A program made the translations under genes and the position numbers. A DNA stretch of 63,001 nt, filler included, from Mustelus asterias (Eukaryota): NCBI RefSeq assembly GCF_964213995.1. It is 4 parts of 4 records of this genome, joined end to end, with 100 filler letters (N's around TTAATTAATTAA, not from the genome) between each part and the next. Parts side by side here need not be neighbours in the genome. Positions count along the whole stretch, not along the records: positions 26,067 to 43,066 come from NW_027590699.1; 3 more parts are not named here. The stretch is one strand, 5' to 3'. This document shows positions 35,039 through 35,792 of the stretch, one piece after another. Under the pieces are notes generated by a model. That model searched no databases and was not told the DNA's origin. It worked only from the letters and a program-made list of their open reading frames with translations. How positions within the stretch are numbered: the first letter of the stretch is position 1; each line of letters opens with the position of its first letter.

Positions 35039-35086
35039 CTGCAGTCACCGTCACCATGGTCCCTTGTCCCCAGTATGCGATGTAGT
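35039..35086 (-). CDS. IGHJ: Ig heavy-chain J segment (YIAYWGQGTMVTVTA)
   Basis: WGxG motif, TMVTVT, and phase-1 donor GCA G|gtaaga. Confidence 0.95.
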
Positions 35087-35125
35087 CACGCTGTCACATT
35101 CCCTGGGCTGGATCTTACACTAACC
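35087..35125 (+). other. 23-bp-spacer RSS 5' of JH
   Basis: Reading away from J: CACGCTG + 23 nt + ACACTAACC. The CAC is retained; there are 2 mismatches each in heptamer and nonamer. Confidence 0.8.
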
Positions 35126-35452
35126 ATCCCTGCACAAAATAGACAAAAAGCCACCATTATTTTAAATATCCACAAGCCAGAGGGAAAGTAAATCACTGCA
35201 TTTTTAATGAAATTTTAATTGTATTTGTGGATACCGTTCGCTCTTCATAAATGACCCTAATGTTTTATAATTCACAGAGCATCAGATGAATATGTTTTTG
35301 GAAACACCAAATGATAATTGAATAGTTATCGTAAATTTTCCATGTTAATTCTGGCTATTTGAGCAGTGCTAGACATAAATAATACAGTGCTGTAAATAAT
35401 GGTGGATTGTAAAACAGAGCACTGCCCCATCCTCGGTCAATTAGTGCTGAGG

Positions 35453-35480
35453 GGTTTTTGTATTGACAGTAACTGCTGTG
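35453..35480 (-). other. 12-bp-spacer recombination signal sequence 3' of V(D)
   Basis: CACAGCA + gttactgtcaat (12 nt) + ACAAAAACC (perfect nonamer). Confidence 0.9.
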
Positions 35481-35792
35481 CACTGCTGTCTCTTGCACAG
35501 TAATAGATGGCGGTGTCTTCGGTCTTCAGCCTCGTCATCTCCAAAGAGAAGATGTTGTTTGAAGTGTCTTTGGACGCAGTAAATCGATCTTTAATTGCTG
35601 GGGCGTAGTTGTTGTTTGATGAACTATCGTACCACAGCAGAAACTGCAGCCCCTGTCCGGGAACTTGTCGGATCCAGTTCATCCAGTGGCTGCCAAGATC
35701 GAAGCCGCTGGTTTTACAGGTCAGTGTCAGGGAGCCTCCGGGTCGCCCGATCTCTGCCTCTGGCTGAGTCAACACAACCTCCGATTGGACAC
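35481..35792 (-). CDS. IGHV: Ig heavy-chain V segment, shark IgM-type, apparently germline-joined to D (V-D)
   Basis: ttttacag|[95 protein letters not shown]. It has both conserved Cys, WIRQ and DTAxYYC, with no stops or frameshifts. Confidence 0.95.

Follow-up and report, generated by a model that had tools for sequence, protein, structure and literature searches.

The stretch of Mustelus asterias DNA analyzed here (63,001 nt including filler, referred to throughout as the window) contains what is probably a shark IgM minilocus in which V was joined to the last D in the germline, forming a VD-J or V DD-J cluster. A VH and a JH, each with its own recombination signal sequence (RSS), lie close together with no free D between them; the 12-spacer RSS (12-RSS) of this VH recurs in a catshark after another junction, and a split VH is followed by an unrelated RSS. 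Of the causes that we considered for the V–D join, past RAG activity in the germline appears the likeliest. The VD-J arrangement itself has been known in sharks since 1988, and our best reading is that this gene adds to the known class of partly germline-joined shark IgM clusters. It would add to the cases of germline RAG activity known from sharks, this time with a V lineage of carcharhiniform type, and by itself leaves the general picture unchanged. A literature search, with subscription papers mostly outside its coverage, turned up no paper dealing specifically with carcharhiniform VD-J clusters.

On the minus strand, the gene runs in the order leader, IgM-type VH, 7–8 nt, 12-RSS, 394 nt without a free D, 23-RSS, and JH. 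A TATA-like element (36064–36071, minus strand) lies 99 nt 5′ of the ATG; a scan of 528 nt of upstream sequence found no octamer, an element missing from shark IgH genes (PMC2435157). The leader exon (35927–35972, minus strand; 46 nt, phase 1, GT donor) is followed by a 134-nt GT–AG leader intron (35793–35926, minus strand) and by an IgM-type VH exon with an open frame and a V-set domain match (35488–35792, minus strand). The reading frame of leader and V is open throughout and IgM-like, with both Cys residues and the Trp at the start of FR2 retained and the Trp of the GLEW motif changed to Phe. This VH is 76–78% identical to Triakis and catshark IgM V sequences and 90% identical to P0013, a Mustelus gene model, over 62–63 aligned residues.

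The Cys-Ala-Arg-Asp codons of VH end at position 35488, and the V end was inferred from P0019 and P0007, whose peptides run on past it. Between it and the RSS lie 7 extra nt (35481–35487, minus strand), likely a D remnant. An earlier note on this DNA had counted about eight; the short stretch is indeed present, with 7 nt if V ends after the Asp codon and 8 nt if V is taken as ending at GA. The 12-RSS that follows (35453–35480, minus strand), most likely a D2-type 3′ signal, consists of the heptamer CACAGCA (35480–35474, minus strand), a 12-nt spacer, and the perfect nonamer ACAAAAACC (35461–35453, minus strand). This is the sole perfect nonamer in the 63-kb window, and none of 200 dinucleotide shuffles of the 17-kb assembly piece produced a 12-RSS of such quality; the signal is thus far beyond chance.

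The intersegment DNA (35126–35452; strand not applicable) carries no free D and separates the 12-RSS from the JH signal by 394 nt, measured heptamer to heptamer. The JH 23-spacer RSS (35087–35125, plus strand) has two heptamer and two nonamer mismatches to consensus and comprises the heptamer CACGCTG (35087–35093, plus strand), a 23-nt spacer, and the nonamer ACACTAACC (35117–35125, plus strand). JH itself (35039–35086, minus strand; 48 nt) encodes the WGQG motif, ends at a GT donor at 35038, is single, and lies in the same orientation as V less than 2 kb away. A loose RSS scan of 35031–35500 gave eight rows, four of which were the two known signals and four of which were weak plus-strand matches with 5–7 total mismatches, each lacking a partner; these leave no free D in the V–J interval. 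VH also lacks a V 23-RSS, as neither a CAC heptamer at the V end nor a V-type spacer was found. These scans confirm the arrangement that the earlier note had described, namely a VH with a 12-RSS, a JH with a 23-RSS 394 nt away, and no D between them. Its claim that a single V(D)-to-J step would obey the 12/23 rule is likewise supported by the 12-RSS/23-RSS pair: the configuration is V-12/23-J, so one deletional step would suffice.

The identity of the 12-RSS was approached through genome gene-model peptides that read through a V exon into its flank, which were back-translated against the window, so that the comparison is one of peptides and not a DNA alignment. P0018, the Scyliorhinus torazame genome gene model scyTo_0022151 (GCB81270.1), contains a VH that reads through a 22-nt junction and then into AQQLLSIQK, a peptide whose back-translation matches the window 12-RSS over 27 nt with 0 mismatches. 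When all 13 residues of the P0018 tail were compared, there were 7 mismatches in 39 nt, against a minimum of 13 among 297 random stretches. Among 243 post-Cys tails drawn from 183 proteins (26 were too short to test), no tail besides that of P0018 matched with 0 mismatches, and the next best had 5. The matching 12-RSS is preceded by 22 nt in the catshark and by 7 nt here, and thus sits 15 nt farther from the V end in P0018. The same signal at different distances from V in two sharks behaves like a D-borne signal. By contrast, P0019, the bamboo-shark model of a split VH, continues into HSERSQVWTHSKT, which we read by hand as a heptamer-23-nonamer directly at the V end; this tail had 17 mismatches in 39 nt against the window, a random-level fit given a null median of 16. 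Because P0018 carries the same 12-RSS after a different junction and the RSS of split P0019 is unrelated, a D-type 3′ signal is the most probable identity of the 12-RSS, rather than a decayed V signal. The reading of the 12-RSS in the earlier note is right, and its identity as the 3′ signal of the last D is borne out at the level of peptides.

A looser 12-RSS-like tail occurs in P0023 from Chiloscyllium punctatum, another bamboo-shark model, with 7 mismatches in 30 nt compared to a null minimum of 9 in 296. This tail resembles a VDD junction that runs into a 12-RSS with a different spacer, and P0023 is probably a further VD-J cluster in the bamboo shark. A 50%-cluster search, which returned mostly multi-V models at 27–50% identity, yielded no further read-throughs with this 12-RSS, and a text search of the shark literature for the heptamer gave nothing relevant among the matches listed.

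The extra nucleotides between V and the RSS fit the end of D2, the core of D1, N nucleotides, or a heptamer remnant about equally, and a D remnant is the simplest reading. They can encode the TAV of P0013 with 0 mismatches, but the RSS itself fits TAV too, making this match ambiguous. In either orientation, 5 of the 7 extra nucleotides match the consensus heptamer, and one inserted base separates them from the J heptamer of this cluster. An assignment to D2 through P0024 was dropped, as its 5 mismatches in 18 nt equaled the null median of 5. Insertion of a RAG transposon into a joined VDJ exon was also rejected, because the flanks of the RSS-bounded segment differ and show no target-site duplication of 3–5 bp, the criterion for such insertions taken from PMC2193153.

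How might this configuration have arisen? The ancestor of this cluster probably had the layout V-23/12-D1-23/12-D2-12/23-J. Starting from such a V-D1-D2-J cluster with intervals of ~400 bp, RAG in an ancestral germ cell would have made either one join (V to D2) or two (V to D1 and D1 to D2), deleting ~800 bp and leaving the 7–8 nt seen at the junction. The gene would then need one deletional 12/23 join to JH, made in a B or T precursor with excision of a 394-nt circle. About one-third of these joins would be in frame, giving a CDR3 of near 10 residues that trimming and N addition would still vary at its J side. At 394 nt, the interval here agrees with the ~400-bp intervals of sharks, which are documented between the segments of nurse-shark IgM (PMC2435157). 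The literature contains germline V DD-J//C clusters from both horn shark and little skate (PMC2193153; PMC5192425), V D1-D2J//C germline clusters are recorded in the same two species from 1988 on (PMC2193153), and partly joined clusters are listed as VD-J in reviews (PMC5192425; PMC4279169). Germline joins of shark light-chain genes display trimming and little TdT activity (PMC2193156), and the short junction here fits with this pattern.

Among other origins for the join, the one that best survives is somatic, although we consider it unlikely. In this case, the assembly would have caught a VDD-J intermediate of a two-step rearrangement from a T or B cell, and the inherited allele would be split. 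Such intermediates are frequent in nurse-shark thymocytes and also occur in B cells (PMC2435157), and the change of Trp to Phe in FR2 is a tandem substitution of the type made by shark hypermutation. However, somatic junctions are unique to clones (PMC2435157) and would thus rarely become an assembly consensus; the junction here is short, with few possible N nucleotides; the same configuration is present in the genome assembly of a second species (P0018); and besides the FR2 change, V agrees with P0013 at 90% identity in an alignment of 62 columns.

It is quite unlikely that RAG instead made a hybrid joint in the germline, linking the V coding end to the 12-spacer signal 3′ of D2, in which case no D would be present and the extra nucleotides would be non-templated. 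Hybrid joints are a rarer outcome of RAG joining than ordinary joints. In favor of one here, the V coding-end and D2 3′ signals face the same way, so that the outcome would be a deletion, and just 7 nt are left with no convincing match to a D. A hybrid joint that swapped RSS types in the germline is documented in horn shark (PMC2193153), but 7 added nt would need TdT, of which germline joins bear little sign (PMC2193156), and the counterpart junction in the catshark is, at 22 nt, D-sized.

A deletion independent of RAG, running from the V heptamer region to the D2 3′ heptamer in a decaying and possibly C-less orphan, would account for the 5 of 7 matches between the extra nucleotides and a consensus V heptamer, for the loss of the FR2 Trp, and for the lack of a Cμ exon among our findings in the window. 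We regard this origin as highly unlikely: the deletion must have stopped exactly at the border of the heptamer, the leader, splice sites, V, both RSSs, and J are otherwise intact, and the match of 5 of 7 is one among several post hoc fits. There is a very remote chance that a re-integrated signal joint was attached to V, the extra nucleotides being a J-type heptamer head to head with the D2 heptamer. Signal joints create an ApaLI site, and the junction here forms one; the extra nucleotides also match an inverted heptamer at 5 of 7 positions and differ by one inserted base from the J heptamer of the cluster itself. This origin would nonetheless require re-integration of a circle plus a second deletion, no upstream spacer, nonamer, or target-site duplication is left, and the last three bases of the junction cannot be shared by the catshark. 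Finally, a decayed VH 22/23-RSS with a mutated first base and a chance internal heptamer is barely credible. A heptamer-like 7-mer with the wrong first base does lie 22 nt from the nonamer, in its favor, but this origin is ruled out at the peptide level, since the spacer is unlike the real shark V spacer of P0019 (17 mismatches in 39 nt), and the identical 12-RSS is shifted 15 nt farther from the V end in the catshark.

An untrimmed V–J join is in frame, as the earlier note had claimed for a precise join, and gives a CDR3 of 10 residues. The frame of this join is confirmed, but it carries no information, because 27 of the 81 ways of trimming keep the frame in any case (none of them with a stop). 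The same note had expected a short, semi-invariant CDR3. Shark lymphocyte joins are trimmed and N/P-extended (PMC2435157), and the V–J junction here would be open to the same processing, which argues against a semi-invariant CDR3. In an illustrative simulation with assumed distributions of trimming and N length, 33,157 productive joins contained 7,363 different in-frame peptides with a modal length of 10 residues. Shortness holds only in part: 10 residues is below the mean of 13 for CDR3s in nurse-shark cDNAs (n = 12) but within their range of 10–16, and CDR3 in one Triakis cDNA has 9 residues.

In FR2 of the window VH (35632–35660, minus strand), GLQF replaces GLEW. The Trp of this motif is kept in 32 of 34 other aligned V sequences, with Cys in one (P0018) and one sequence not parsed; 7 of 41 proteins were left out of the alignment as multi-domain, truncated, TCR-joined, or non-shark. 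The change from Trp to Phe may mark decay. Phe at this position occurs in camelid single-domain antibodies, and the other FR2 hallmark positions of the window VH are conventional. Carcharhiniform sequences (Mustelus, Triakis, and Scyliorhinus) are the nearest to the window V, which in a V tree falls with P0018 in one six-row clade (support 96/87). The two are not sisters, however, and shared descent of the Trp loss is therefore not supported. A distinctly improbable possibility is that these genes form an old, selected carcharhiniform lineage of one-step IgM genes and are not separate decaying copies; this idea draws on the shared V clade, the identical 12-RSS, and the loss of the FR2 interface Trp in both, with GLEC in P0018 at the site of GLQF here, and the FR2 codons could form a stepwise Trp-Cys-Phe series. 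If true, it would imply a conserved heavy chain of light-chain-like V–J type whose VH/VL interface is altered and which serves early in life. The same V clade also includes P0004 and P0005, gene models from two Scyliorhinus species, whose near-identical 11-residue CDR3s suggest a conserved, fully germline-joined VDJ.

Compared to known systems, the window gene most resembles the V DD-J//C and VD-J IgM clusters that Kokubu et al. (1988) described in horn shark and little skate, according to PMC2193153, PMC5192425, and PMC4279169. Like the gene here, these have an IgM-type V joined to a short remnant, a single remaining 12-RSS, and one JH with a 23-RSS ~400 bp away, with no free D; unlike them, the window gene has a carcharhiniform-like V, a junction of 7–8 nt, Phe in FR2, and no C exons in view. 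The somatic VDD-J product of two rearrangements (2R) in nurse shark (Malecek et al., 2008; PMC2435157) has an identical layout, with VDD fused and the D2–J interval kept, but is clone-specific and bears N/P additions, and the germline IgM loci studied in that source are split. P0018 of Scyliorhinus torazame shares with the window gene its V clade, the 12-RSS at the peptide level, and loss of the FR2 Trp, whereas its junction of 22 nt has another sequence, its FR2 residue is Cys and not Phe, and it is not the sister of the window V in the tree. Opossum VH3.1 also has V and D joined in advance and recombines straight to JH (PMC3454362); it belongs to a mammalian translocon locus and, as described there, shows that such a gene is usable, though rarely used. 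Nurse-shark IgM1gj (P0012; PMC4279169) is likewise a product of germline RAG activity in an IgM cluster, but it is a fully joined, invariant VDJ expressed in neonates, whereas the window locus needs one join.

The earlier note had treated the gene as a working one, but no constant region was found in the 63-kb window. Searches of the window by tblastn with nine heavy-chain proteins detected no Cμ exon, and neither did a Pfam search of 94 minus-strand ORFs located from 19 kb on, a set that left out low-complexity ORFs and those longer than 400 residues. The V–J gene lies on an assembly piece of exactly 17,000 bp (26067–43066) between two 100-bp gap linkers, each composed of 44 N, 12 bases, and 44 N. 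This piece ends 8,972 nt downstream of JH, ~4.4 kb of this distance being LINE and low-complexity DNA, and the region 30800–35038 (minus strand) is a putative AT-rich start of the J–C intron with no C exon. In nurse shark, Cμ1 lies 6.3–6.8 kb from J (PMC2435157). The G+C content is 0.29–0.47 in the 17,000-bp piece compared to ~0.55–0.62 in its flanks; this contrast and the round length suggest a scaffolding cut at a round coordinate. Thus, Cμ most likely lies outside the window owing to an assembly break and has been placed elsewhere; alternatively, the gene may be an orphan V–J without C exons.

Use of the V–J gene in lymphocytes is possible, though we lean against it. No cDNA proteins carrying this V were among those retrieved, and expression of germline-joined H genes was not detected in horn shark (PMC2193156). 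Whether partly joined shark H-chain clusters complete rearrangement and are expressed is a published open question, for which the intact leader, V, both RSSs, and J, together with a unique junction tag, would make this gene a convenient test case if its C exons are found.

Several other features of the window were observed. Just 3′ of JH, three degenerate direct repeats (33643–34862) are 60–89% alike and spaced by ~390 and 620 nt; one contains an RSS-like site with a 24-nt spacer at 34810, and another contains a weak 12-spacer site at 34350. The pieces ending at 12727 and 43066 stop at nearly the same position of one LINE-like repeat, as expected of repeat-induced contig breaks. The only C1-set exon in the 63-kb window (25474–25812, minus strand) is TAPBPR-like, its best matches among solved structures being to TAPBPR (E = 3e-15), and a likely transmembrane exon lies downstream of it at ~24660–24760 (minus strand); Pfam on ORFs found no upstream exons of this gene in the window. 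A gap separates the TAPBPR-like exon from the V–J piece, and the adjacency of IgH and TAPBPR may have been created by scaffolding. Very long arrays of minisatellite and low-complexity DNA at 13555–19120, 20000–24400, and 43167–49100 consist of 37-nt-type units and TC-rich repeats and yield spurious long ORFs.
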